Positions 25,894 to 55,186 of a stretch of DNA of 64,000 bases are shown here, piece after piece; the stretch's first letter is position 1, and each line of letters opens with the position of its first letter. Origin of the DNA: a virus. Position numbers and translations under genes: made by a program. Under the pieces are notes generated by a model. That model saw only the letters and a program-made list of their open reading frames with translations, was not told the origin of the DNA and searched no databases. The DNA lies in the IMG/VR virus record IMGVR_UViG_3300046809_000507, positions 4,910-68,909 of that record; one strand, given 5' to 3'.

Positions 25894-26648
25894 CCGCCAA
25901 CACCTCCAAGGGCATCACCTATCCACAGTCGACGGATCACACCCGACTGTGGGAACACATGCAGACCCTCGCCGCGACCGCCGACAGCATCATCTTCGGC
26001 AACATCGACCGGCAGATTTTCACCGCCAACGGCACCTGGACACGGCCCTCCAACGCCATCAGGGTCTTCGTCCAGGTGCAGGCCGCAGGCGGGGGCTCTG
26101 GGGGAGTCGCCTCGACCAGCGCAGGCCAGGCATCGTGCGCGCCCGGTGCGTCCGGCGGCGAATACGCCGAAGGCTGGTTCACCCCAGCGACGACGGGCGG
26201 CACCGTTGCCGTCACCGTCGGAGCGGGGGGAACGTCGGGCTCGTCCGGTGCCAACGCCGGCGGCGACGGCGGCGGCAGTAGCTTCGGGGCGCTCATCACC
26301 TGCATCGGCGGATCCGGTGGCGCGGGCGGAACCGCCTCGACTGCCACCTCGATCGGTGCACCCAACGGCGGCACCGGCGGCACCGGCGGCGACTTCCGTG
26401 TTGCGGGCGGCGACGGGTCGAACGGCCAGGTCGTCGGCGGGGTTCCACTGAAGTACAACAGCGGCGGCTACGCCTACCTCGGCGGCGCCCGCCGCGCATC
26501 CGGTGTCGCCGCGACCACGACCACCGGCTTCAACGGATACCCCTACGGCGGCGGCGCATCCGGCCCCGCCAACGGCGCCACCCAGTCCGCGGTCGCTGGC
26601 AGCACCGGGGCCGGCGGCATTGTCATCGTCACCACCTACACCGCATAG
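25890..26648 (+). CDS. Glycine-rich tail fiber protein
   Basis: FTANGTWTRP...VTVGAGG...GAGGIVIV. Confidence 0.8.
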   Translation: MTANTSKGITYPQSTDHTRLWEHMQTLAATADSIIFGNIDRQIFTANGTWTRPSNAIRVFVQVQAAGGGSGGVASTSAGQASCAPGASGGEYAEGWFTPATTGGTVAVTVGAGGTSGSSGANAGGDGGGSSFGALITCIGGSGGAGGTASTATSIGAPNGGTGGTGGDFRVAGGDGSNGQVVGGVPLKYNSGGYAYLGGARRASGVAATTTTGFNGYPYGGGASGPANGATQSAVAGSTGAGGIVIVTTYTA

Positions 26649-26656
26649 GAGTTGCT

Positions 26657-26896
26657 ATGCCCCTCGCCCCGCCCGAGACATCGACCAGTGACATCGCCTG
26701 GATCGTCAACGGCCGTTACAACGCCAACTCGGTCACGTCCTTCCAGCTCCACATCACCGTCGAGGGCCCGTCCGACGAGGCCGAGGGCGACGCCTGCCTC
26801 CAGGCGCTGGTCGACCTGCTCGGCACCCGCTTCGCCGGAGTGGCCGGAACCAAGGGCTTTACGGCGTACACGACGAGGGCCATGACCCCCTCCTGA
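26657..26896 (+). CDS. Small tail-region protein
   Basis: RBS aggag. Confidence 0.6.
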   Translation: MPLAPPETSTSDIAWIVNGRYNANSVTSFQLHITVEGPSDEAEGDACLQALVDLLGTRFAGVAGTKGFTAYTTRAMTPS

Positions 26897-26919
26897 CCTC
26901 GCCGAACCCCAGACCACCC

Positions 26920-26940
26920 AGCCCCTGCCGGGGCTTTTTT
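26920..26940 (+). terminator. Intrinsic terminator-like hairpin
   Basis: AGCCCC-TGCC-GGGGCT followed by a T-run. Confidence 0.65.
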
Positions 26941-26957
26941 CATGCCCGGGAGGGGCT

Positions 26958-27845
26958 TTGACTCTCACCTTTCGCGGCGGGAAGCTTCCCGCGCAACCGG
27001 CCCGCCCGCATCTGAAGCTGTCCGCTGTCCTCCGCGAGCGGCTTGCGGTACCGCCGGCCGCCATGGACTGGCAGGACGACCGGATCGTCTGGCCGATGTA
27101 CGGGAATGCAGAGGTCGGAGACTGCACGTGTGCTGGTGTCGGGCACCTCGTCAACCAGCTCACCTACTACGGCACGGGCACGGAGGTGGAGCCCGCAGAG
27201 TCGTCGGTCCTCGGCATGTACTCGGCGATCACCGGCTACGACCCGACCAAGCCCGACAGCGACACTGGCGCCTACTGCCAGGACGTCCTCGCGTACTGGC
27301 GGAAGACCGGACTCGAAGGCCACAAGATCACGGCCTACGCGTCGCTGGACGTCTCCAACCTCACCGAGATCAAGCAGGCCATCGCCCTGTTCGGCACCGT
27401 CTACGTCGGCCTCAGCTTCCCCGACAGTGCGATGACGCAGTTCGACAACGACCAGCCCTGGGACGTCGTCCGCGGCGCCACGGTCGAGGGCGGCCACTGC
27501 GTCATCGTCGGCGCCTACGGGGCAGGGAAGTTCGGCCTCGTCACCTGGGGCGCCGAGACGGCGATGACCGAAGCGTTCTGGAAGCGCTACGTCGACGAAG
27601 CCTGGGTCGTTCTCGATGCCGACGGGCTGAAGAAGGCGGGCGTCTACTTCACCGGCGCGCCGTCCTACTACGCACTCGGAGAGCAATTCGCGGCGCTGAC
27701 CGGCGAGAAGAACCCGATCCCGCAGCCCGGCCCGGTGCCGACCCCTCCTTCGCCGCCCGCGCCTTCTCCAGTGGATCCTCGCCTGGCTAAGGCGTTGGGT
27801 CTGATGCAGGCGTGGGCGAAAGACAACCACGTGACGGGAGTCTGA
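26958..27845 (+). CDS. Papain-like cysteine peptidase
   Basis: GDCTCAG (Cys), GGHCV (His), VTWG; RBS ggaggg before TTG. Confidence 0.75.
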   Translation: MTLTFRGGKLPAQPARPHLKLSAVLRERLAVPPAAMDWQDDRIVWPMYGNAEVGDCTCAGVGHLVNQLTYYGTGTEVEPAESSVLGMYSAITGYDPTKPDSDTGAYCQDVLAYWRKTGLEGHKITAYASLDVSNLTEIKQAIALFGTVYVGLSFPDSAMTQFDNDQPWDVVRGATVEGGHCVIVGAYGAGKFGLVTWGAETAMTEAFWKRYVDEAWVVLDADGLKKAGVYFTGAPSYYALGEQFAALTGEKNPIPQPGPVPTPPSPPAPSPVDPRLAKALGLMQAWAKDNHVTGV

Positions 27846-27847
27846 CC

Positions 27848-28741
27848 ATGGTCGACCTGTGGATGCCCGGCGCCGCCCGGCACTCGCTGGGCAACACCGG
27901 CGTGATGAACGGCGGCCCGGCGCGGGCCGTCTGGCACATCACCAGCAACGCGACTGACTGGACGTTCGCCCGCGAGCTGGGCTGGTTCACCGGCGGCGGT
28001 GCCGACGTCGCCCCCCACCTGCTCTGGGACCCGTTCACGGGTGAGCTGGCGCAGTTCTTCCCCGCGGACTCCCGCTCGCTGTCGCTGGAGAACGCGGGCA
28101 GCGTCAGGACGAACCGGACCGGCACGTACTGCATCCAGATCGAGATCGTCTTCACCGAGGGCGAGACCGTCAACGGCAAGAAGTACGCCACGGTCCGAGA
28201 CACCCCGTGCAAGAACCTCGACAAGATCGTCGCCTGGCTGCGAAGCCTCGGCGTCGTCGACGCCTGGCCGGGCGGCACGCCCACCGGGTTCGTCCGCGAC
28301 ACCGTCTCCCTGGACAGCTGGCAGAAGCTCGGCGGGCACTACGGCCACAACCAGGTCCCCGGCAACAGCCACGTCGACCCGGGCCCGATGCCGTCCTTGT
28401 TCGCGCCGGCCCCTACTCCGGCCAAGCCGCCCACCCCGGCAAAGCCCAAGGTGTCGCTCGCGCACGTCGTCTACGCCGCGAAGCACGACCCGACCGCGGC
28501 GCAGGGCCACACCTCCTACAAGGCCGAGGTGTTGATCGTCGAGAAGGCGCTGAAGGCGGAAGGTTTCCTCTCCGCCCAGTATGTCGACGGCTCCTTCGGA
28601 TCCCTCACCGTCGGCGCCTACGCCCGTTGGCAGCGCTCCCCGGCAGGCGGCGGCCACACAGGCAGCGCCGCCGACGGCATCCCCGGCAAGGCCTCCCTCA
28701 AGCTGCTTGCCGCCCGGCACGGCTTCACCGTCACCGACTGA
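27848..28741 (+). CDS. Endolysin: N-acetylmuramoyl-L-alanine amidase plus peptidoglycan-binding domain
   Basis: VWHIT, IQIEIV, GHNQVPGNSHVDPG; DGSFGSLT...ADGIPG. Confidence 0.9.
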   Translation: MVDLWMPGAARHSLGNTGVMNGGPARAVWHITSNATDWTFARELGWFTGGGADVAPHLLWDPFTGELAQFFPADSRSLSLENAGSVRTNRTGTYCIQIEIVFTEGETVNGKKYATVRDTPCKNLDKIVAWLRSLGVVDAWPGGTPTGFVRDTVSLDSWQKLGGHYGHNQVPGNSHVDPGPMPSLFAPAPTPAKPPTPAKPKVSLAHVVYAAKHDPTAAQGHTSYKAEVLIVEKALKAEGFLSAQYVDGSFGSLTVGAYARWQRSPAGGGHTGSAADGIPGKASLKLLAARHGFTVTD

Positions 28742-28758
28742 CCTTCAAGGAGATCACC

Positions 28759-29082
28759 ATGCACCCCACCGACGCACAGCTGTGGGCTGCGGCCCTCGGC
28801 TACCTGCTGCCGCTCGCCATAGCGATCGTCGCGCAGCCCCGCTGGACCGGCGCCGTGAAGGGCCTCCTCATGCTCGCCGTCGCCAGCGGCGACGGAGTCG
28901 GAACCGCGTACTTCAACGGTGAGTTCTCCAGCAAGTCCATCGTCACTTGCATGCTCGTCGCCGCCGTCGCCATCGGCGCCGCCTACCACCTCCTGTGGAA
29001 GCCCTCCGGGATCGCTCCCGGCATCGAGCGCGCCACGTCGACGGGCGGCACCGCTCCGGCGAGCACCCCCCAGGGCGTGTAG
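28759..29082 (+). CDS. Holin-like membrane protein
   Basis: Three TM segments, directly after the endolysin. Confidence 0.75.
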   Translation: MHPTDAQLWAAALGYLLPLAIAIVAQPRWTGAVKGLLMLAVASGDGVGTAYFNGEFSSKSIVTCMLVAAVAIGAAYHLLWKPSGIAPGIERATSTGGTAPASTPQGV

Positions 29083-29517
29083 GTGCGGCGCCGTATCGTC
29101 CGGCGGCTGGGCAGGCTGCTCGGCCGCCGCGGCGCGTTCCTCCTGGCGTTCGGCATGGTGTGGGGGCTGATCGGCTACGGCCAGATCTCCGCTCCACCGC
29201 CGGACCAGCGCGGCCTGCATCTGCTGCTGGACCGGGTGCCGTTGGTGGTGTGGGGCTGGTTGTGGATCACGGCCGGGGTGGTGGCGATCGTGTCGGCGTT
29301 CCTGCCGCAGGGCTCCGACCGGTTCGGGTTCCTCGCGCTGCCGTTGATCGTGACGCCGTGGATCATCTCGTATCTCGTCGCCTGGTGGCAGGGGACATTC
29401 CCCAGGGGGTGGATCGCGGCGGCTCTGTACGGCGGGCTCGCGATCGGAATCCTGGTCGTGGCCGGATGGGGGGAGCCTCCGCGGCCCAAGAGAGAAGAGC
29501 CTCCGTATGACTCCTGA
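29083..29517 (+). CDS. Four-TM lysis-cassette membrane protein
   Basis: LGRRGAFLL start, hydrophobic helices. Confidence 0.75.
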   Translation: MRRRIVRRLGRLLGRRGAFLLAFGMVWGLIGYGQISAPPPDQRGLHLLLDRVPLVVWGWLWITAGVVAIVSAFLPQGSDRFGFLALPLIVTPWIISYLVAWWQGTFPRGWIAAALYGGLAIGILVVAGWGEPPRPKREEPPYDS

Positions 29518-29866
29518 CGCGAACACCATTGCGTCGATCCTCGGCACGGTCGCCACCGGAGGCCTGGCGGCCTGGGCTGCACGCTCAGCGAAGCGAACCA
29601 AGCCGCAGGAGAAGCGAGACGACTTCCTCGCCGTCACCGACCAGCAGGGCAAGGCCATCGAGCGTCTGGAGACCCGCGTGCTGCGCCAGGAGACCGAGGC
29701 GGAGAAGCAGCGGCAGCGGATCGGCGACCAGGACGAAGCGATCGGCTGGCTCCTGTACCGAGTCCGCTCGCTCGTGTCCCACATCAAGAAGGCCGGGCTG
29801 GAGCCGCCGCCGGCCGAGCCGATGTCGGAGCCGGCGGCCCGGTACATCCGCAACATCGACGCGTGA
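29507..29866 (+). CDS. TM plus coiled-coil lysis-cassette protein
   Basis: N-terminal TM, coiled coil, EPPP. Confidence 0.72.
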   Translation: MTPDANTIASILGTVATGGLAAWAARSAKRTKPQEKRDDFLAVTDQQGKAIERLETRVLRQETEAEKQRQRIGDQDEAIGWLLYRVRSLVSHIKKAGLEPPPAEPMSEPAARYIRNIDA

Positions 29867-29883
29867 AGACTGGAGTGCGGCCG

Positions 29884-29970
29884 ATGGACGAGCCCCCGCC
29901 GCCGTTCTGGTTGTCGCCGCGCCCGTTCCTCGAACCCGAACCCGACTGGCCGGACGACGACGAAGACTGA
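29884..29970 (+). CDS. 28-aa Pro/acidic peptide (MDEPPPPFWLSPRPFLEPEPDWPDDDED)
   Basis: RBS ggag; ends just before the terminator. Confidence 0.5.
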   Translation: MDEPPPPFWLSPRPFLEPEPDWPDDDED

Positions 29971-29972
29971 CG

Positions 29973-30006
29973 ACGCCCCCTCCTGCTTCGGCGGGAGGGG
30001 GCGTTT
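29973..30006 (+). terminator. Terminator ending the late operon
   Basis: 14-bp stem, TTCG loop, TTT. Confidence 0.8.
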
Positions 30007-30089
30007 CGCTGTGTCCATCTCTCGTTCGAGCTGTGCCACGGTCGGCTGATGACGGGTATCTCGACTGTGGCCTGGTCGGTATATAGGGC

Positions 30090-30275
30090 ATGAACCGTGA
30101 AGAGCGCCGCCGCATCCTGGGCGACGAAGTGATCGCCGCTATCCGTCAGCGAGTCGCCGAGGCTCCCGATCCGTCTCCGGAGCTAGTGGAGGAACTTCGG
30201 CGCATCATGACCAATCCAGGCGGCTCGGTTCCTCGGGAGCGCCCGGGAGGTCTCGACTCGGGACCTAGCGCATAG
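30090..30275 (+). CDS. Small hypothetical protein
   Basis: 61-aa ORF, possibly leaderless. Confidence 0.6.
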   Translation: MNREERRRILGDEVIAAIRQRVAEAPDPSPELVEELRRIMTNPGGSVPRERPGGLDSGPSA

Positions 30276-30318
30276 CGTCCGCTGAAGCGCGCTCACTCCC
30301 TGAGGGCTTCGAGAATGC

Positions 30319-30354
30319 TCTAACCCTCGATAACCTGACTTATGGAGGGTCAGA
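30319..30354. other. lox/dif-like recombination site
   Basis: TCTAACCCTCGATAA-CCTGAC-TTATGGAGGGTCAGA: 15-bp inverted arms (13/15 match), 6-bp spacer, 240 bp upstream of a tyrosine recombinase. Confidence 0.78.
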
Positions 30355-30363
30355 AACGGTACG

Positions 30364-30597
30364 ATGGAGGGCATGGAAACCCTAAGCGCCTTCCAGGATC
30401 TGATGACCGCACTCACCACCCGGCGCCCCAACCAATCGGCTGCCGCGGACGAACGAACTGTTGCGGCAGCCCTGGACAAGCACGCCCATGAGTTGGCGGC
30501 GCGCATCGCTGAGTACGCCGAGCGTCCCGGCATTGATGAGCCCCAGCGTCAGATCCTCCGAGGCGCCGCCCGAATCGTTCGCGGCGAGGAGTTGTGA
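30364..30597 (+). CDS. Small protein coupled to the recombinase gene
   Basis: GTGA overlap with the recombinase start. Confidence 0.6.
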   Translation: MEGMETLSAFQDLMTALTTRRPNQSAAADERTVAAALDKHAHELAARIAEYAERPGIDEPQRQILRGAARIVRGEEL

Positions 30598-31592
30598 CCG
30601 ACCTCGAACCCCGCGTCGCCGACGTCGTCCCGCACGACCCGAACACGGTCCTCTCCCCGGCCGCCCTCGACCGCCTCGACCGGTCCATCCCCGAGAACAC
30701 GAAGACCGCCTACCGCCGCCAGGCCCGGGACTTCGTCGCCTGGTGCGAGGAACGCGGACGCGACACCCTACCCGCCAGCGCCCAGACCCTCGCCGACTAC
30801 GTCTCCCACCTCTGCGACCAGGACAAGGCGCCGTCCACGATCGAGCAGGCTATCGCCACCATCCGCGTCGCCCACCGCGAAGCAGGCCACGACGGACAAC
30901 CCGACACCCGGGCCGCGTTGCGCATCCTCAAGACCCACAAGCGCGACCGGGCCGATCAGGGGAAGCGCAAGAAGAAGGCCCCCGCTGTCACCCTCGACAT
31001 CCTCCGCGCCATGATCGACGCCACCGACCCCGACACCCTCGCCGGACGCCGCGACCGCGCACTCATCGTCCTCGGCTTCGCCATGATGGCCCGCCGCTCC
31101 GAACTCGCCGCCCTCCACATCGGCGACGTCGCCTTCACCGACGACGGACTCGTCGTCCTCATCCGCACATCCAAGACCGATCAGGAAGCCGAAGGCGCCG
31201 AGGTCCACATCCCCAACGGTGTCCACCCAGACACCGACCCCGTCCGCGTCGTCCGGGCCTGGCTCGCCATCCTCACCGACCACGGCCACACCGACGGTCC
31301 GCTGCTCCGCCAGATCAATCGCTGGGACCAGCTCCAGCCGGGCGGCATGTCCGGCGCCGCCATCAACGAACGCGTCCGCGCCCTGGCCGTCCGAGCCGGA
31401 CTCCCCAAAGCGGCAGACTTCACCGCACACGGCCTCCGAGCAGGCGGACCCACAGAAGCCGCCAAAGCGGGCCACCCCGTCAGCTTCATCGCCGACCACG
31501 GCCGCTGGTCCAAGACCAGCCCCCAAGTGCTGGAGTACATCCGGTCCACCGAGAAGTGGCGCGACAACCCGATGCGCGGCATCGGACTCTGA
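30594..31592 (+). CDS. Cre-like tyrosine recombinase (resolvase type)
   Basis: RDRAL, RRSEL, SKTDQ, HGLRAG, HGRW, terminal Y; no arm-binding domain. Confidence 0.92.
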   Translation: MTDLEPRVADVVPHDPNTVLSPAALDRLDRSIPENTKTAYRRQARDFVAWCEERGRDTLPASAQTLADYVSHLCDQDKAPSTIEQAIATIRVAHREAGHDGQPDTRAALRILKTHKRDRADQGKRKKKAPAVTLDILRAMIDATDPDTLAGRRDRALIVLGFAMMARRSELAALHIGDVAFTDDGLVVLIRTSKTDQEAEGAEVHIPNGVHPDTDPVRVVRAWLAILTDHGHTDGPLLRQINRWDQLQPGGMSGAAINERVRALAVRAGLPKAADFTAHGLRAGGPTEAAKAGHPVSFIADHGRWSKTSPQVLEYIRSTEKWRDNPMRGIGL

Positions 31593-31861
31593 ACGCCAGC
31601 CGGGGGCATCACCGGGGAGCGGATATTTCCAGTCACGCATCTATCCCCGTGGCTGGTTCTGGTGCATCGTTGATCGCGCGGGCCCACCGATCCCCCCAGG
31701 TGAGGCCCCACTCCGGGCCCCGCCGTGTAGCTGCGAGCTGGGCGGGGCCCGCCGCTCCTCCCGGCTCCCCACGGGAGGCATGCGGCTGCCCGGCGCCGGT
31801 GTGCGCCCAGCCGCCGCGCTTCATAGGCTGGCCTCACGGGGGCTGCTCACGGAGGTCTGCA

Positions 31862-32779
31862 ATGCCCCGAACCATTTGGAGCGGAGCGATCAGCTTCGGT
31901 CTAGTCACCGTGCCGATCCACGTCGTGTCGGCCACGGAAGATCACAGCATCCGCTTCCACCAGGTCCACCTGGAGGACATGGGCCGGGTCCGGAACCGGA
32001 AGATCTGCTCGATCGACGGGCAAGAGGTCTCCCAGTCGGAGATCGGCAAGGGCTACCAGCTGTCGAAGGACACGCTCATCCCCGTCCTCGACGAGGAACT
32101 GCGGGAGATGCCCCTGCCGACAGCGAAGGCGATCGAATTGGTGGCGTTCATGCCGGCCGAGAGCATCGACCCGATCCGGATCGGCGAGGGCTACTACCTC
32201 CAGCCGGACGGCCAGGTCGCAGCCAAGCCCTACACCCTCCTCCGTCAGGCGCTGGAGCGGTCGTCGAAGGTGGCCGTCGCGAAGTACGCCTGGTCCGGCC
32301 GCGAGCGTCTCGGCCTGCTCCGGGTCCGCGACAACGTGATCGTGCTGCATGCGATGCGGTGGCCGGACGAGATCCGCAGCCCGGCCGAGCTGACACCGGA
32401 AGCCGTCGAGCTCACCGAAGACGAGATCGCCGAGGCGGAACACCTCATCGACCGGCTGACCATCGACGACCTGGAGGGCGAAGACTTCACCGACCGGTAC
32501 ACAGAGGCCGTGGAGCAGCTCATCGACGCCAAGCGCGAACACCGCGAACCGCCCACGGCCGAGGAACCGAAGGAGCCAGCACAGATCGTCGACCTGATGG
32601 CCGCGCTGCAGGAGTCCGTCGCGAAGGCGCGAGAGTCCCGCGGCGAGGACGCCACCGTCCACGACCTGCCGAAGAAGAAGACCGCGGCCAAGAGGACGGC
32701 GAAGAAGCAGCCGACCAAGAAGACGACCACGAAGAAGACTTCCAAGAAGGTGACGGGGCGGAAGCCGCGGAGTGCCTAG
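31862..32779 (+). CDS. ku: Ku DNA end-binding protein
   Basis: MPRTIWSGAISFGLVTVP...VDLMAALQES plus Lys-rich tail. Confidence 0.95.
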   Translation: MPRTIWSGAISFGLVTVPIHVVSATEDHSIRFHQVHLEDMGRVRNRKICSIDGQEVSQSEIGKGYQLSKDTLIPVLDEELREMPLPTAKAIELVAFMPAESIDPIRIGEGYYLQPDGQVAAKPYTLLRQALERSSKVAVAKYAWSGRERLGLLRVRDNVIVLHAMRWPDEIRSPAELTPEAVELTEDEIAEAEHLIDRLTIDDLEGEDFTDRYTEAVEQLIDAKREHREPPTAEEPKEPAQIVDLMAALQESVAKARESRGEDATVHDLPKKKTAAKRTAKKQPTKKTTTKKTSKKVTGRKPRSA

Positions 32780-32793
32780 GCGCCCTCCTTGCT

Positions 32794-33249
32794 CTACTGC
32801 GGATACCCCTGCTCGCCCATGCACTGCTGGAACGCCTTCTCGTGCATCGTGGCGCTGTACGAGTCAGTGAGCGAATCAAGCGTGTCGTCACCGCTACTGC
32901 TGTTGCCCGGATAGGCCTGGTTGGCGACGGTCTCGCAGTGGGCGCGGGCCTCGGTCTCGGTGAGCTGCGTCTGAGTGTCGCTGTCCTGAACAGGGACGAC
33001 GGTGTCCTTGCCGTCCTTGCCGTCTTTGCCTGCAGGCCCGGGAAGGCCACGGAGACCGGGCAACCCCGCCGGTCCGGGCGCCCCGGATGGACCGGCCGGG
33101 CCGGGTGTGCTGCGCTGGGTTTTCAGGTCGCTGATCTGCATCTGCTGGGCGATGAGCGCCGCCGACTGGGCAGCCAGTATGGCGACGAGGACGCCGCCGA
33201 CTATGAGGTGACGCCGCGGTCTTCGCGGCGGTTCGTTTTCGCTGTTCAC
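32794..33249 (-). CDS. Membrane-anchored collagen-like protein
   Basis: TM helix, about 11 Gly-X-Y triplets, Cys pair. Confidence 0.75.
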   Translation of the reverse strand: MNSENEPPRRPRRHLIVGGVLVAILAAQSAALIAQQMQISDLKTQRSTPGPAGPSGAPGPAGLPGLRGLPGPAGKDGKDGKDTVVPVQDSDTQTQLTETEARAHCETVANQAYPGNSSSGDDTLDSLTDSYSATMHEKAFQQCMGEQGYPQ

Positions 33250-33287
33250 GTGCCCCCCTTGGCCTGGACAGCCGAAGTGTAGGGCAG

Positions 33288-33623
33288 TCAGTCCAGGTAC
33301 CCGAGCTCCGTGTCAGGCCGGCAGTGGGTGCAGGCGGCGACCCCTTCGGCGAGCGCCCGGCGCGCCTGGTCCTCGCTGACGCCCTTGGACCGCTTCCCCG
33401 TCATGTGGCAGTCGCCTGCGTGGACGTACACGGGATGCCCGCCGTTGAGTCCTTGCTCGATCATCCAGTCCGGCTGGGGTGGCCGGGCTTGCTCGCCGCG
33501 CTGCTGCTCGGCCTGCCGCTGCTCCTCGGCTGCGATCCACCTGCGGGTGCGGTCGAGGTCTTGCTCCTGGACGCGGGCGAGGAAGTGCAGGGAGTCGAGA
33601 CGGGACGGGGCGGAGTCGTTCAC
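33288..33623 (-). CDS. DUF6233-like protein
   Basis: VHAGDC...ACTHCRPDTELG. Confidence 0.75.
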   Translation of the reverse strand: MNDSAPSRLDSLHFLARVQEQDLDRTRRWIAAEEQRQAEQQRGEQARPPQPDWMIEQGLNGGHPVYVHAGDCHMTGKRSKGVSEDQARRALAEGVAACTHCRPDTELGYLD

Positions 33624-33631
33624 GTGTTCGA
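33616..33631. promoter_or_regulatory. Degenerate LexA (SOS) box over the DUF6233 start codon
   Basis: TCGTTC-ACGT-GTTCGA versus the actinobacterial consensus TCGAAC-N4-GTTCGA. Confidence 0.5.
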
Positions 33632-33687
33632 TATTACGGCTGTACGCTGCCACCGGCACACCAGGGGTTCGACGAGAGGAGCAGGCC

Positions 33688-34017
33688 ATGACCGACGCTG
33701 ACCTGCTGCTCGCCCTCGGCATCGACCCGGCCACCCTCGACCCGGCGCCGGCTGCCGGCCGGGACGGCTTCGCCCGGGTGGGCCTGGACCCGGCGCCGTG
33801 CAGCTTGTGCGGGCGACCGGCCAGCGTCACGAAGGCCCTCGCCCTGGACGGCGGCCATCGGTGGCTGGACCGCTGTCTTGCCTGCTTCACCGCGACGGCC
33901 CGCTTCGACTCGAACCGGACGCCGTCGACCACGGCCGGGATCGTCGCCGACCTCCGGGCTGCGGCAGCCGAGGCGGGCGTGGCGCTGACCGTGGCCGTCG
34001 ACGGCGAGGCAGGCTGA
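33688..34017 (+). CDS. Hypothetical zinc-binding protein
   Basis: RBS gaggag; CSLC...RWLDRCLAC. Confidence 0.65.
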   Translation: MTDADLLLALGIDPATLDPAPAAGRDGFARVGLDPAPCSLCGRPASVTKALALDGGHRWLDRCLACFTATARFDSNRTPSTTAGIVADLRAAAAEAGVALTVAVDGEAG

Positions 34018-34021
34018 CCGC

Positions 34022-34213
34022 GTGGACCGCTACCACCTGCTCCTCACCCTTGATGGCCGGCCCGCGATGCAGGGCTGGTGGACCTCCGAGGCGACCGCCC
34101 GCCGCCAGTTCACGTCGTGGGTCGGCGAGCGCGGCAGCATGCCCGGCGTGCGCATCACCCTCGTCGACGAGGAGACGGGCGAGACGCTGGAGACCTGGCC
34201 CGAGGAGCCGTAG
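34022..34213 (+). CDS. Small hypothetical protein
   Basis: GRPAMQGWW...LETWP. Confidence 0.65.
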   Translation: MDRYHLLLTLDGRPAMQGWWTSEATARRQFTSWVGERGSMPGVRITLVDEETGETLETWPEEP

Positions 34214-34331
34214 CGACGGCTGCCCCGTTGTCGGTGGCGACTCGTAGAATTGGGCTCATCAATCAGCCATGCTGGCTGCGTGAGCTGAAACCGCCCCGCC
34301 CGCCGAGAGACCGGGCGGGGCGGACTGCTGT

Positions 34332-34535
34332 CTAGGCCGCCTCGACCTCCGCGTGCCGGACGGCCCGCTTGAGCCCCATCTCGACGTCGTACCGCGGCAC
34401 CCCGGCCTGCTTGGCGAACGCGGCGACCCCCTCGTGCACGGCGCGCGCCGTGTCCACGGTCAGCTCGCCGTCCTGGATCTGCTTCCAGGCGGAACGTTCC
34501 AGCTCCAGCAGGGGTTCGGGGAAGTCGATGGTCAC
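34332..34535 (-). CDS. Small hypothetical protein
   Basis: Helical 67-aa ORF. Confidence 0.6.
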   Translation of the reverse strand: MTIDFPEPLLELERSAWKQIQDGELTVDTARAVHEGVAAFAKQAGVPRYDVEMGLKRAVRHAEVEAA

Positions 34536-34702
34536 CGGGGGATCCTACGCGGGGGCGTCTGTCATGCTGACCGCATGCGAGTGTGGCGCGAGTACTGGCA
34601 GGCTTTCGGGATTCGCTACGGCCTCTTCCAGGCACTCATGGCGGTGCTGTGGGTGGCCAGCGGCATGGGTCTGTTCGGCGGCCTCGCATGGATGGCGCTG
34701 AC

Positions 34703-34897
34703 CTAGGCCGCTTCGACGATGTCCCCACGCTCGGCCGCAGTCGCCACCGTCCACTCATCCCGCAGCACCTCGTACCGGCGCCGCGTGTCCCCGTACAGCC
34801 AGCCGCCAGCCCGCACCACCAGGGCGCGGATCTCCTCATTCACCACGGCAGACGGCCGCACGAGGCCCGAGGTCGGGGGAGTGGGAGGCATGGTCAA
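34703..34897 (-). CDS. Small hypothetical protein
   Basis: RPSAVVNEEIRAL motif. Confidence 0.6.
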   Translation of the reverse strand: MTMPPTPPTSGLVRPSAVVNEEIRALVVRAGGWLYGDTRRRYEVLRDEWTVATAAERGDIVEAA

Positions 34898-34923
34898 ATC
34901 CTAGAGCCAGCCTCGGACAGCGG

Positions 34924-35172
34924 TCAGCCCTCAGCCGGGGGCTGCTGGCGGGCGACGAACGACCCGAGGCCCGGCTCCGTGTAGATGAGCCCTTCCTCGC
35001 GCAGCCCGCCGTGGACCTTCTGCGCGGTCGCCTGGGCGATCCCGAACTCGGTCGCGAGCTGGATGACCGACGGGACCCGTGTGCGCGGCGGGTAGGTGCC
35101 GTCGGCGATCCGCTGCCGGATCACTTCGGCTACCTGCTTCCACCTGGGCACATCCGCCTCGAATTCGATCAC
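34924..35172 (-). CDS. Short GntR-family winged-helix regulator
   Basis: WKQVAEVIRQRIADGTYP...GLGSFV. Confidence 0.85.
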   Translation of the reverse strand: MIEFEADVPRWKQVAEVIRQRIADGTYPPRTRVPSVIQLATEFGIAQATAQKVHGGLREEGLIYTEPGLGSFVARQQPPAEG

Positions 35173-35308
35173 ACGGTCAACGTGACACGCCATCCCATGC
35201 CACGCGAGCGGTAGCACACGTAGCAACCCATAGCATGCTATGTCTAAGCTGCTAATACAGCCCCGCCCACGCACGGCCGGGGAGTGCAGGCCGGTGAGCG
35301 GAGCGGAC

Positions 35309-35539
35309 ATGGACGAGCGTAGAGACCGACCCCCGCCCCACGGAACCGGCACGGCAGCCATACCTCCCGGCGCCCGACTCTCCCCGCTCCAGCAGGCCTA
35401 CAGCCGGTACGTCACCCACACCACCGGATGCGACCACTGCCGGGACATCGACCGCGGCTGGTGCGAGAAGTCGGAGCGCCTGCACCGGGAGTGGAAGCGG
35501 CAGGAGGCTGCGGCCGTTCGCGGGCTGGCCGGCGCGTGA
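35309..35539 (+). CDS. Small Cys/His protein, divergent from the GntR gene
   Basis: HxxxCxxC...C. Confidence 0.6.
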   Translation: MDERRDRPPPHGTGTAAIPPGARLSPLQQAYSRYVTHTTGCDHCRDIDRGWCEKSERLHREWKRQEAAAVRGLAGA

Positions 35540-35769
35540 CGATATCCACCGTGCGGATGGGGACACGAATCGTCCACGGTGGGACAAGGCGGCGCGCGAC
35601 GGGGTCCGTCTGGTGGGGTTTGTGTGGATCGCGTGCCCGTGAAGGTTACGGGCGGGTGACGAGTTGTGTGCATCCCGTGCAGATATATGCAGAGAGTGGT
35701 CTTCCGTAACAGCCAGACGTGATGTTGACTGAATTTCTGTCAGCCGCTCGAAATGAACGTCGTGGCAGG

Positions 35770-36024
35770 TCAGCCGTGGAGGAGGTCGGTGATGCGCACG
35801 CCAATGACGCGGGCGATCCGCAGCAGCGTGTTCAAGGACGGGTTAGCGACACCGCTCTCGATCTGCTGGTAGTAGGCCCGGTTGAGTGGGACGGCGAGGA
35901 AGACCTGCTCCTGGGTGAGGTTGCGGTCTGTGCGGACGTTGCGGATGGACCTGCCGATGCGCTGCCGCTCCTCGCGGAGGGCGTCGCTGTCTGGCGGGTC
36001 GGAAGTCACTCGACAAACGCTCAA
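35770..36024 (-). CDS. XRE-family HTH regulator
   Basis: NLTQEQV...IESGVANPSLNTLLRIA. Confidence 0.85.
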   Translation of the reverse strand: MSVCRVTSDPPDSDALREERQRIGRSIRNVRTDRNLTQEQVFLAVPLNRAYYQQIESGVANPSLNTLLRIARVIGVRITDLLHG

Positions 36025-36509: not shown

Positions 36510-36880
36510 CTGGGGGAGCGGCTGGGGAGTGAGGCTCCTCGGGGAGTGCCCGGGGAGCCTCGGAAAGCCTAGTCGGGTCAACTCGGCACCACTGAGGTCT
36601 ACTCAGTACCACCAGTTCAGAGGGGTAGTGGCGACCCGACAGGTCAAAGGCCGAGGACCGGCACTCCGTTATATAGGTTCATCGCCAACTGATATGCCAT
36701 CCCGCCCACCAGGCCCGGCAAGGCCACCGGCACCTCGGCCTCAGACGTTCGCGTCAACGGATTCTTGCAGCTCAAGTGCCGTATCCAGCACCTCAGGTTG
36801 CCATAGCTCACCGGCCTGACGGGGGAGCAGGCCACCGCCCGAAACCCCTGAAACAGACACCTGGGGAGCGGCTGGGGAGG
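36510..36880. other. attP-like region with integrase arm-type repeats
   Basis: GGGGAG-N5-GGGGAG pairs at 36513, 36541 and 36863 (first and last identical over 17 bp) flanking an AT-rich stretch at about 36665-36697. Confidence 0.7.
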
Positions 36881-38159
36881 ATGGCGCGGGATCATCCGTC
36901 CTCGCGAACCAGGCGTCCAGAGCCTGCCGGCCACGGCCGTCCGCCTCGGGCATGAAGTGCCCGTACACCCGCAGCGTGATCGAAGCGTCAGCATGACCAA
37001 GCCACTTCGAGACTGCCACGGGATTCTCCCGCGAGTCCAGCTGCACGCTCGCATACGTGTGGCGCAGCGAGTGGAAGCCCATCTCGTGCGTAGGCCCGTA
37101 CACGAGGCGGGTACCCACACCAGAACTCCGGGGGACGCGCTTCGGCTTCGGAATCACCCCGGCCTCGGCCAACGCCCACTTCCAATGATCCTCGTTCCAC
37201 ATGTTCGCCCGGACGGCATTGCCATTCCTGTTAACGACCAACAGTCTGTGCGTCTGCGGCGCCCGCTCCTTCGCCTCCACCTTGCTCGTCGGCGGCCGAG
37301 GATCCTTCCAGGGGAGCGTCACAGGCTTTGCCGGGAAGCGGTCCAGGTGCTGCGCCAGGCGCTGCGCGAGATGGTCCGGCATCGGGACGGTGCGCGTCTT
37401 GTTCCCCTTCGGGAGCGAGAACACGAGCTTCCCTTCGATGCTGCGGATCTGGCGCCGCACGTGGATGAAGCCGCCCTCCACGTCGATGTCGTCCTCCGAC
37501 AGGGCGAGCACCTCCCCCTGCCGCAGTCCCGCCCCTGCCCCGATGTCGACGAGCACGCGGTAGTACTCGGGCAGTTGGGCCTGCACGGCGAGAACCCGGC
37601 TCCTGGTCCACGCGCGGGCCTTCGAGCGGGGCGCGGACGGCGGCTTGAGAGTGGGCGCCCGGCACGGGTTCTTGGAGATGCGCTCGTCGTCGACGGCGCA
37701 CTCCAGGATGTTGTTGAGGTACCCCCACGCGACGACTGCGGTCCCCGGCGCGACCTCCCCCTCCAACTGCTTGAGCCAGACGCGCAGCGAGTCCACCTTG
37801 ATGAGCCTGAGCGGGGTGCTCCCGAGGTGGGGGAGGATCTGGCCGCGGATCCGGTGCCCTACGGTCTGCAGGGTTGCGGGGTCACCGGTTTTGGACGGCC
37901 ACCAGTGCTGGTCCACGTAGTCCCGCAGCAGCATGTTGCCGTCGCGCGGGTCGATGAACTCGCCCCTGTTGCTGTCGGAGATGGCCTTCGCGAGCCACGC
38001 GTTGGCGGCTTCCTTCTGCTTGTCGGGGAACGACCGGGCGCGCACTCCGGGGATGCCGGCGACCTTGTAGCGCTGGCCTTTGCCGTATCGCTCGGTACGG
38101 ATGGTCCGCTTGCCGTCCGGCGCCTTCTTGAGCCAGCGGTCTTCGATGTACCCAGCCAT
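36741..38159 (-). CDS. int: Tyrosine integrase
   Basis: GLRQGE, PKG, FHSLRHTYAS, WLGH, VYGH. Confidence 0.95.
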   Translation of the reverse strand: MAGYIEDRWLKKAPDGKRTIRTERYGKGQRYKVAGIPGVRARSFPDKQKEAANAWLAKAISDSNRGEFIDPRDGNMLLRDYVDQHWWPSKTGDPATLQTVGHRIRGQILPHLGSTPLRLIKVDSLRVWLKQLEGEVAPGTAVVAWGYLNNILECAVDDERISKNPCRAPTLKPPSAPRSKARAWTRSRVLAVQAQLPEYYRVLVDIGAGAGLRQGEVLALSEDDIDVEGGFIHVRRQIRSIEGKLVFSLPKGNKTRTVPMPDHLAQRLAQHLDRFPAKPVTLPWKDPRPPTSKVEAKERAPQTHRLLVVNRNGNAVRANMWNEDHWKWALAEAGVIPKPKRVPRSSGVGTRLVYGPTHEMGFHSLRHTYASVQLDSRENPVAVSKWLGHADASITLRVYGHFMPEADGRGRQALDAWFARTDDPAPSSPAAPQVSVSGVSGGGLLPRQAGELWQPEVLDTALELQESVDANV

Positions 38160-53459: not shown

Positions 53460-53671
53460 GCCCCTTCGACCGCCTGATGGCGGAGGCCCTGCCGACCGGC
53501 ACCTTCGGCCACGCCGAACCCATCCAGCCCCGGCAGGCCGAGCGGGTCTCCCTGTGGACGCCCGCAGAGCAGGCCGATCACGTTGCCGCCCTTGAAGCCG
53601 AGCTGGACCGGCTCGAAGGCCGCGGCACTGGCAAGCCGAAGCTGCGGCTCATCGAAGGAGAAGCCGCATGA
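53456..53671 (+). CDS. Small hypothetical protein
   Basis: Overlap-coupled. Confidence 0.55.
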   Translation: MSPFDRLMAEALPTGTFGHAEPIQPRQAERVSLWTPAEQADHVAALEAELDRLEGRGTGKPKLRLIEGEAA

Positions 53672-54639
53672 CGAACCTCAGCCTCTGCTCCGGCGCCGGC
53701 ACCCTCGACCTGGCCGTCGAGCAGATCACCGGCAACAAGACGTTGGTCTATGCCGAGAACGACCCGTTCGCCTCCCGCGTCATGGCCGCCCGCTTCCAGT
53801 GGGCCGTGAACCTCGGCGACATCACCAAGGCCGACTGGGCCGGCGCTGCCAGCCAGTGGCAGATCGAATCCCTCGCGGCCGGATTCCCGTGCCGCAACAC
53901 CTCCAACGCAGGAAAGCGGGACGGCATCAATGGCCAGTGGTCGAGGGTCTGGAAGAACGTTGCTGAAGCTGTGGGCGTCATTCGACCGCGCATCGTCTTC
54001 CTGGAAAACGTGGAAGCGCTCCGGTCGCGGGGCCTCGACGTCGTCGTCGAAGACCTGGCCGCGATCGGGTATGGCCTCTGGTGGACGTGCCTACCAGCTG
54101 CGGCCGTCGGCAACCCCAGCCTCCGCTGGCGCTGGTTCGGTATCGCCCGTCCCGACGGAGGCGACCACGACGTGACCGCCTGGCGGCAGCGGTGGGAGAC
54201 CCTTCCGCCGGCCGCCACCTTCGCGGACGAGCTCGCCACACTGCCGCTCGTCGCATCCAGGGACTGGAAGTCCAGCGCCTCCAACAAGCTCGACGACAAC
54301 GCCCGGCCGCTGAACGAGTACGTCGCCAACCTGTTCGACCGGCCGGGCGAGAGCTGGGTCACCACCCGCGGCGTCGACCACACCCCGGCCATTCGCCGCT
54401 GGGAAGCCGTCACCGGCCGGGAGGCGCCCGCCCCGTGGACCCGCGGCCCTCGCGGAGGCCGGCCTCTGTCGCCCCTGTTCGCCGAATGGATGCAGGGCAA
54501 CGACCTCGGCTGGATCACCGACGTCGACATCCCCCGCGACAAGCAGATCCAGATCGCTGGCAACCAGGCCATCACCCGCCAGGCCGTCGAGGGCTATCGC
54601 CGGCTGCTTACTGCCGACCTCGACGCGATGGCCGCGTGA
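53668..54639 (+). CDS. Orphan C5 DNA cytosine methyltransferase
   Basis: SLCSGAG, GFPC, ENV, terminal GN. Confidence 0.9.
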   Translation: MTNLSLCSGAGTLDLAVEQITGNKTLVYAENDPFASRVMAARFQWAVNLGDITKADWAGAASQWQIESLAAGFPCRNTSNAGKRDGINGQWSRVWKNVAEAVGVIRPRIVFLENVEALRSRGLDVVVEDLAAIGYGLWWTCLPAAAVGNPSLRWRWFGIARPDGGDHDVTAWRQRWETLPPAATFADELATLPLVASRDWKSSASNKLDDNARPLNEYVANLFDRPGESWVTTRGVDHTPAIRRWEAVTGREAPAPWTRGPRGGRPLSPLFAEWMQGNDLGWITDVDIPRDKQIQIAGNQAITRQAVEGYRRLLTADLDAMAA

Positions 54640-54751: not shown

Positions 54752-55186
54752 ATGACCGACCCGAAGCCCCTCACCGTCCAGCAGCTCGACGACATCGAGA
54801 CCCGCGCCACCGCCGCCACCCCCGGACCGTGGGGCGTCTACACGTTCGGCGGCGACAGCCTCATCGAGATCGCCGCCGACCTGGAAGACACCGGCTGCGG
54901 CTACCAGGCCCGCCGCACCATCGCCCGCTTCGAGGAGGAGCCCCTCGACAACGACCCGACGCACCGCGAGTGGACCGCGGAGGAGGACTGGGCGCAGGTC
55001 CAGGCGGACGCCGAGTTCGTCGCCCACGCGCCGGAGGACGTCGATGCGCTGCTCGCCGAGATCCGCCGACTCAGCGCCGAACTGGCCGCAGCCGCGGAGG
55101 ACGTGTCGTGGCTGCGCTGCCTGGAAGCGGCCGGCGTCGACAACTGGGAGGGCATCGAGACCGCGATCGACATGCGCGGCGAGTAG
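54752..55186 (+). CDS. Ead/Ea22-like protein
   Basis: AATPGPW...DAEFVAHA...LLAEI. Confidence 0.75.
   Translation: MTDPKPLTVQQLDDIETRATAATPGPWGVYTFGGDSLIEIAADLEDTGCGYQARRTIARFEEEPLDNDPTHREWTAEEDWAQVQADAEFVAHAPEDVDALLAEIRRLSAELAAAAEDVSWLRCLEAAGVDNWEGIETAIDMRGE

Follow-up and report, generated by a model that had tools for sequence, protein, structure and literature searches.

A 64,000-nucleotide stretch of viral DNA (hereafter, the window), which covers bases 4910 to 68909 of the 68.9-kb IMG/VR record IMGVR_UViG_3300046809_000507 (rated 99% complete), carries a compact module in which a 36-bp palindrome precedes the gene for a 332-amino-acid (aa) tyrosine recombinase homologous to MrpA of the Streptomyces coelicolor plasmid SCP2. 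The source is a temperate Streptomyces-type phage with the gene content of a siphophage. Conservation and arm covariation beside homologous genes indicate that the palindrome is very probably the cognate site of the recombinase, which would bind its two arms. We regard it as likely, if by no means assured, that the module is of the MrpA/mrpS type, i.e., a Cre/lox-like system that recombines its site with identical copies of itself, reduces circular phage multimers and represses its own expression.

The recombinase is a Cre-like relative of MrpA

The recombinase gene (30594-31592, plus strand) starts with GTG, and its product combines the Pfam domains Phage_int_SAM_1 and Phage_integrase with matches to PHROG integrase families. 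All 17 matches in a search of solved structures with the single sequence were to Cre or the Cre-derived Tre (best E value, 1.2e-17), residues 32-320 being aligned on residues 37-329 of Cre; a 19-sequence profile gave the same outcome (17/17; best E value, 4.3e-25). The catalytic residues R167, K194, H279, R282, W305 and Y315 align to Cre R173, K201, H289, R292, W315 and Y324, and all six are invariant in 19 homologues with 56-100% identity. These data bear out the view of a first-pass annotation of the window that a Cre-like enzyme with a full catalytic set is encoded here. However, that annotation took the open reading frame (ORF) at 30364 for the recombinase. The frame at 30364-30597 is instead a separate ORF of 77 aa, read in another frame; the presence of a small ORF between site and gene had been overlooked.

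Also overlooked was the MrpA/mrpS system, which is a much closer relative than Cre or XerCD. The enzyme is 36% identical to SCP2.07c, the SCP2 integrase/recombinase adjoining parA, across 332 of 332 residues (E value, 1e-47), compared with about 22% identity to P1 Cre. In a maximum-likelihood (ML) tree of 30 recombinases, several long branches of which are uncertainly placed, the window enzyme groups with actinobacterial homologues, and Cre is a distant outgroup on a very long branch. Xer models matched only the N-terminal half of the protein and with scores far short of their cutoffs (53.5 versus 329.6 bits for XerD, 37.2 versus 335.15 for XerC and 39.6 versus 220 for XerA); the PRK00283 subfamily model was similarly far below its cutoff, and the XerS model gave no match at an E value of ≤0.01. 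Homologues at an E value of ≤1e-20 occur in 427 plasmid records, 111 of which are from Streptomyces.

The palindrome is conserved and covaries beside homologous genes

The proposed recombination site (30319-30354) consists of a left arm (30319-30333), the spacer CCTGAC (30334-30339) and a right arm (30340-30354). Its 15-nucleotide (nt) arms are complementary at 13/15 positions, and ATAA and TTAT flank the 6-nt spacer, which confirms the ATAA-N6-TTAT element with 15-bp inverted arms noted in the first pass. Taken within the window alone, the palindrome is weak evidence of a site. The 64 kb contain four repeats that combine 15-nt arms with a 6-nt spacer and match at 13 or more arm positions; apart from the palindrome itself, these are GC-rich hairpins. 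At least one such repeat arose in 24.5% of 200 first-order Markov simulations. It is conservation next to homologues that lifts the palindrome above chance.

This conservation was assessed at 23 homologue loci (3 viral contigs and 20 genome contigs, roughly ±5 kb each). A whole-locus scan for TAA-N(5-8)-TTA palindromes with at least 11/13 arm matches detected exactly one in 14 of the 23 loci, located 55-697 nt upstream of the recombinase match and nowhere else. A looser scan added L014, and inspection by eye added an imperfect motif in L016, L021 and L022, bringing the count to 18/23; a search for lox-like repeats near five distant homologues (L005, L016, L017, L021 and L022) had returned none before that inspection. 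In a second viral set of eight new loci, the site was found by scan in four and by eye in L034, and of the three others, L041 and L043 hold, again by eye, a degenerate form with a 7-nt spacer. The Microcystis phage Mwe-JY05 has a 45%-identical gene preceded by a palindrome with perfect 12-nt arms and a 6-nt spacer, two small ORFs lying between this site and the gene. In SCP2, a palindrome of the same geometry (L033:2386-2421) ends 17 nt before the annotated ATG of SCP2.07c; judging from its position, this is probably the published mrpS. No other neighboring gene is conserved across the homologue loci, so that the recombinase alone qualifies as a partner of the site.

When 16 sites are aligned, the TAA and TT beside the spacer never vary, the outer arms can be grouped into classes, and the spacers differ even between sites with near-identical arms. 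The arms are 90.4% complementary versus 78.6% in shuffles, with none of 500 shuffles reaching the observed values, and changes on both sides are seen at 10 of the 15 positions. Relatedness inflates this shuffle test; the safer comparison is a slid-column control, in which complementarity falls to 30-43%. Arm and spacer classes track well-supported recombinase clades of the ML tree (support of 100/99 for the five sites with a CCTGAC spacer, 100/99 for the Streptosporangium class and 100/100 for the 7-nt-spacer class). The related pairs represent six or more arm classes, and their spacers measure 6 or 7 nt. The upstream alignment, with a site at 18/23 homologues and covarying arms, thus upholds the earlier proposal that the palindrome is the cognate site of the recombinase.

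The spacers are variable but not random. When the 12 distinct spacers are read in one chosen orientation, all begin with G and 10/12 have A at position 4. Relative to the gene, some subgroups carry the spacer in the opposite orientation to others, the CCTGAC of the window being the reverse complement of the GTCAGG of L011.

The site occurs once per element

The site is single-copy in the 68.9-kb phage record. The first-pass suggestion to search host chromosomes for it led to no separate chromosomal copy: in 5/5 host genomes with a homologous module the site occurs once, intact and beside the gene, and a sample of 300 further genomes from the genus of G001 did not contain it (≤2 mismatches in 22 specified positions). 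No extra half-site turned up in 12 A-arm loci examined over about ±4-7 kb around the gene, and the window contains only chance-level matches to half-sites with two mismatches (3 versus 1.46 expected). Single-copy status combined with free drift of the spacer would be expected if the site always recombined with another copy of the same element, whereas a fixed chromosomal target should demand a conserved spacer.

A second copy of the site in L015 was rejected, as it reflects duplicated edges of a scaffold gap and not a true duplication. In this Streptacidiphilus contig (L015:4370-4853), a run of N separates two nearly identical stretches of 50 nt, which contain half of the site.

Promoter-like elements adjoin the site

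The small ORF between site and gene (30364-30597, plus strand) encodes 77 aa from the ATG at 30364, and its TGA stop overlaps the GTG start of the recombinase (GTGA), which suggests translational coupling. An in-frame ATG at 30373, possibly a leaderless start, would give a 74-aa version; it is preceded at a distance of 7 nt by the -10-like hexamer TACGAT (30360-30365, plus strand), a putative promoter element placed 5 nt after the site. This hexamer is conserved in relatives. Among the five closest (window included), the DNA left of the site is unrelated, and the site and a TAnnAT hexamer 5 nt downstream of it are kept in all five; the window's close relatives have TAGAAT, TACAAT or TAGGAT, and an ATG follows 5-7 nt beyond the hexamer in 4/5. 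Compact A-arm loci likewise have a related -10-like hexamer (8/8; weak in L011 and L018), and there it is the recombinase's own ATG or GTG that follows after 6-7 nt. A hexamer-to-start spacing of 6-7 nt is typical of leaderless actinobacterial transcripts. The site therefore probably overlaps the module's own promoter, as the first pass had proposed. With a transcription start at 30373, the site would extend from about -54 to -19 and take in the -35 region, so that autorepression by bound recombinase is plausible.

The small ORF itself is not a conserved part of the recombination system: it has no Pfam, PHROG or NCBIfam match and only four homologous clusters, and relatives have different small ORFs, or none, in its place. 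In six compact loci, a palindromic CCCTAGG(G)-type motif lies 7-10 nt upstream of the site (L004:5886-5915, L008:4864-4893, L010:4885-4914, L011:4914-4943, L014:4912-4941 and L018:4883-4912). It is not seen in the window's subgroup and may be an operator for a neighboring helix-turn-helix (HTH) gene or a divergent promoter element.

Comparison with known systems

The system to which the module compares best is MrpA/mrpS of SCP2*, reportedly characterized since 2011 by Warth, Haug and Altenbuchner, with a mutational study of mrpS said to have followed from Warth and Altenbuchner in 2013. MrpA is reported to be a tyrosine recombinase that resolves plasmid multimers (PMC3218068); in Escherichia coli, given a synthetic mrpS site, it converts plasmid monomers to multimers and back (PMC4685060). 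The 36% identity between the two enzymes is spread along their full length and takes in the C-terminal NPxxGIGL tail. Each site lies directly before its gene and is built of imperfect 15-nt arms around a 6-nt spacer, 12/15 arm positions being shared, and in both cases a single enzyme is present with no accessory sites detected. The two modules differ in setting and detail. That of the phage sits in an integrative siphophage between lysis and lysogeny genes, with a different spacer, a small ORF between site and gene and a leaderless-looking start, whereas that of SCP2 is on a low-copy plasmid beside parA and has a GGGAGG ribosome-binding-like stretch.

Cre/loxP belongs to a wider group of Cre-type pairs that also includes Dre/rox and Vika/vox. 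The phage enzyme has the two-domain form of Cre and its R-K-H-R-W-Y set, and its site likewise adjoins the gene and is simple, without accessory half-sites in the loci and window searched. In the P1 record (L044:1-1467), lox is followed by cra ("cre associated function," 207-428) and cre (436-1467), and in the window and in Mwe-JY05, too, a small ORF comes after the site and before the recombinase. Unlike P1, which is a plasmid prophage, the phage described here has an integrase, and its enzyme is separated from Cre by a very long tree branch at about 22% identity. The loxP site has 13-bp arms and an 8-bp spacer (PMC10250229), compared with 15 + 6 in the phage site and a 7-nt spacer in a sister clade; no 8-nt-spacer site was seen among the module sites. 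A published discovery pipeline for Cre-type systems admitted only 8-bp spacers and, in the passages describing it, mentions no Streptomyces (PMC10250229).

The module differs from the Xer systems in that its enzyme is far below all Xer model cutoffs and its site has no housekeeping chromosomal locus, being found in 0/300 genus genomes. The dif site of XerCD does share the ATAA-N6-TTAT geometry and the 6-nt spacer. TnpI/IRS of Tn4430 and Tn5401 also pairs a tyrosine recombinase with a resolution site that lies in the promoter region of the recombinase gene, and is reportedly autoregulated; its sites include accessory repeats, of which none is seen at the phage site. Finally, the module resembles XerS/difSL (PMC2731167) in the genetic linkage of the site to a single recombinase gene and in the dimer resolution role that we propose here.

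Proposed multimer resolution and its alternatives

In the mechanism we favor, the functional unit would comprise the 36-bp site, the promoter, the small ORF and the recombinase gene. Each 15-bp arm would be occupied by one recombinase monomer, a pair of identical sites would synapse, and strand exchange would take place across the 6-bp spacer with no need for accessory sites. Since the site is single-copy, its only partner would be another copy of the same phage genome, and the outcome would be the conversion of circular dimers or multimers, or of tandem copies of phage DNA, to monomers. This would occur while the genome is circular, i.e., after injection and cos joining, after excision or in early replication. 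Recombinase bound at the site over the -35 region would repress its own transcription.

Several points weigh against multimer resolution, whose weak point is what an integrative phage would gain from it. A 472-aa integrase is encoded separately, and the relatives are found in large, probably linear chromosomes. The HNH endonuclease and large terminase presumably indicate cos packaging, and it is not obvious why an integrative phage of the cos type should require dimer resolution, lambda-like phages managing without it. The scanned ORFs include no partition genes. Five of the 23 homologue loci (L005, L012, L017, L019 and L025) are without the site. L005 is a plasmid-sized contig, the gene is 5′-truncated in L012, and L025 holds a gene fragment, yet L017 is a prophage with the same gene order and still lacks the site; no comparable palindrome was found in Streptomyces phage ZL12 in the region scanned either. 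A sigma-70 consensus scan of 29800-32000 finds no promoter, so the proposed promoter rests on conservation. As a side observation, L005 is classed as viral in IMG/VR and is probably a plasmid or phage-plasmid.

The plasmid-like or conjugative phase that the first-pass annotation had envisaged finds no support: the window ORFs scanned include neither ParA/ParB nor transfer genes, the phage has an HNH endonuclease with a large terminase and a separate 472-aa integrase, and relatives lie inside chromosomes.

Among the alternatives, it is unlikely, if conceivable, that the module recombines different genomes, either an incoming phage with a resident prophage or two coinfecting phages, at the border between late and lysogeny/early genes. 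Such crossing would capture superinfecting DNA or swap genome halves. In keeping with this, the gene lies at the same late/lysogeny border in L003, L006, L016, L017, L021 and L022; the window, L003, L006, L007 and L034 share CCTGAC and nearly the same arms next to unrelated DNA left of the site; and MrpA also gives intermolecular products, multimerizing plasmid monomers in E. coli (PMC4685060). However, mosaic borders are general in temperate phages and arise without a dedicated enzyme, metagenome contigs span the site unchanged with no reliable joint there, and the presence of homologues on plasmids and nonphage elements argues for general replicon maintenance. A programmed form of this idea also seems to us improbable. 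In it, the module would not maintain a single replicon but would set a crossover point between phage genomes right at that border; the enzyme of a resident prophage would capture or cross incoming relatives with the same arms and spacer, and the fast-changing spacer would serve as a compatibility label for the exchange of genome halves.

Still less probable is a second integration system, in which the palindrome would be the attP for a site in the host chromosome or a resident plasmid. A tyrosine recombinase with a nearby site would fit, as would L011 and L013, in which the gene is placed at one edge of a PrimPol/D5-helicase element beside host-like toxin genes, and the 12/15 arm match to the SCP2 palindrome means that plasmids could in principle offer targets. 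The chromosomal copies nevertheless carry the intact full palindrome, once per genome in 5/5, and no attB or hybrid attL/attR partner was seen, 300 other genus genomes lacking the site at ≤2 mismatches. Moreover, spacers vary freely between elements, which is unexpected with a fixed target, and the integrases at element edges are different proteins (a tyrosine integrase in the window and a serine recombinase in L014).

We also find little reason to reduce the palindrome to a transcriptional operator, or the module to a decaying passenger, with recombination irrelevant to the phage. The overlap of the site with the proposed promoter, the lack of a clear use for the reaction in an integrative cos phage and the missing site at 5/23 loci could all be read in this way, but invariance of the six catalytic residues in homologues of 56-100% identity points to selection for catalysis, and the related MrpA is an active recombinase (PMC3218068 and PMC4685060).

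Cyclization of the injected linear genome, as performed by Cre on terminally redundant P1 DNA, is more doubtful again. The P1 record does annotate cre as "cyclization recombinase," and the window has the P1-like order of site, small ORF and recombinase. Against this, an HNH endonuclease by the large terminase presumably signals cohesive ends, for which a recombinase is unneeded, and the single-copy site lies midgenome, about 25 kb from the terminase gene.

The reading of the inverted repeat as an RNA hairpin (a terminator or 5′ structure) is very unlikely: although arm covariation alone cannot separate a DNA palindrome from an RNA stem, the repeat is upstream of the conserved -10-like element and would not be transcribed from the module's own promoter, a strong GC hairpin (29973-30004) probably already ends the upstream operon, the invariant TAA and TT by the spacer in 16/16 sites and the fixed arm and spacer lengths are traits of a protein site, and a synthetic mrpS oligonucleotide of the homologous SCP2 system works as a DNA site (PMC4685060).

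Genomic setting of the module

The window has a G+C content of 68.6%. Structural genes encode the HNH endonuclease, large terminase, portal, protease and capsid and are accompanied by tail genes, including one for a 1,567-aa tape measure, and by an endolysin gene (27812-28741). A leftward block specifies GntR- and HTH-type regulators and the main tyrosine integrase (472 aa; 36741-38159, minus strand; PHROG_1 integrase, E value of 9.6e-50), and rightward early genes include a replication initiator. This integrase is the phage's first recombinase, which makes the 332-aa enzyme its second. The module occupies the slot between the last tail/lysis-side gene and the leftward lysogeny block, in the order GC-rich hairpin, 61-aa ORF, palindrome, 77-aa ORF and 332-aa recombinase ORF. 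The hairpin (29973-30004, plus strand; 14-nt arms, 93% complementary, 4-nt loop) follows the last tail/lysis-side gene and likely marks the end of the late operon as a putative terminator, so that the module downstream would be its own transcription unit. A scan of 29800-32000 for intrinsic terminators and sigma-70 consensus promoters returned no sites and did not call this hairpin.

The 61-aa ORF upstream of the site (30078-30275) has no family match; TATATA five bases before its ATG at 30090 resembles another leaderless start. Elsewhere in the window, 54752-55186 shows a C-terminal match to the T7 gp5.9 RecBCD inhibitor family and 53668-54639 encodes a C-5 cytosine methyltransferase, both likely counterdefense genes of the phage.

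At the DNA level, a search of the 2-kb module region against 50,697 phage records returned no match. The sequencing runs that contain the module are rhizosphere and soil metagenome DNA contigs, with no RNA run among those listed. In four runs compared over 26000-36000, contigs span the site unchanged; the joints found there have 20-26 matching letters on the shorter side, are unreliable, and none is at the site. In run X4 (window 29302-31281), a contig left of the module shows 15 differences in 525 positions and one over the recombinase shows 0 in 735, a contrast that hints at a mosaic relative from single low-depth contigs only.

Homologues occupy the same slot, after lysis/tail genes and before leftward lysogeny genes, in L003, L006, L016, L017, L021 and L022. 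In L010 the homologue is beside a tape-measure-like gene, in L011 and L013 it is at the end of PrimPol/D5-helicase elements, in L014 it is next to a large serine recombinase at the element's edge, and in L024 it adjoins type I-C cas genes. The occurrence of the module in such varied elements, together with the lack of partition and transfer genes in the window, indicates that site and gene behave as a portable accessory module of circularizing mobile elements and not as their integrase. The 507-aa large serine recombinase of L014 (L014:6065-7588) is convergent to the MrpA-like gene and adjoins conserved host genes (signal peptidases and NUDIX), a second case of the module alongside a separate integrase.

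Significance

Systems of this kind are already known from MrpA/mrpS and, much earlier, from Cre/loxP, and the prior characterization of MrpA/mrpS in particular lowers the novelty of the phage module, which is a sound but fairly ordinary find. What is new is a phage-borne member in a fixed genomic slot, a covariation series across the family and the promoter-overlap architecture. In the literature searched, which left most subscription journals uncovered, no MrpA-like or Cre-like module was found described in an integrative Streptomyces phage.

The module provides a well-supported recombinase/site pair from a high-GC phage, although its orthogonality to MrpA is uncertain because 12/15 arm positions are shared with the SCP2 palindrome. 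Beyond this single pair, the family offers a natural series of related pairs whose arms coevolved with the enzyme and which published Cre-type screens would have missed because they required 8-bp spacers (PMC10250229). Orthogonal recombination tools for actinomycetes could be developed from this series, which also lends itself to the study of specificity change in tyrosine recombinases. For the phages themselves, the module poses the modest question of why integrative Streptomyces phages retain a plasmid-type multimer resolution module at a fixed position.

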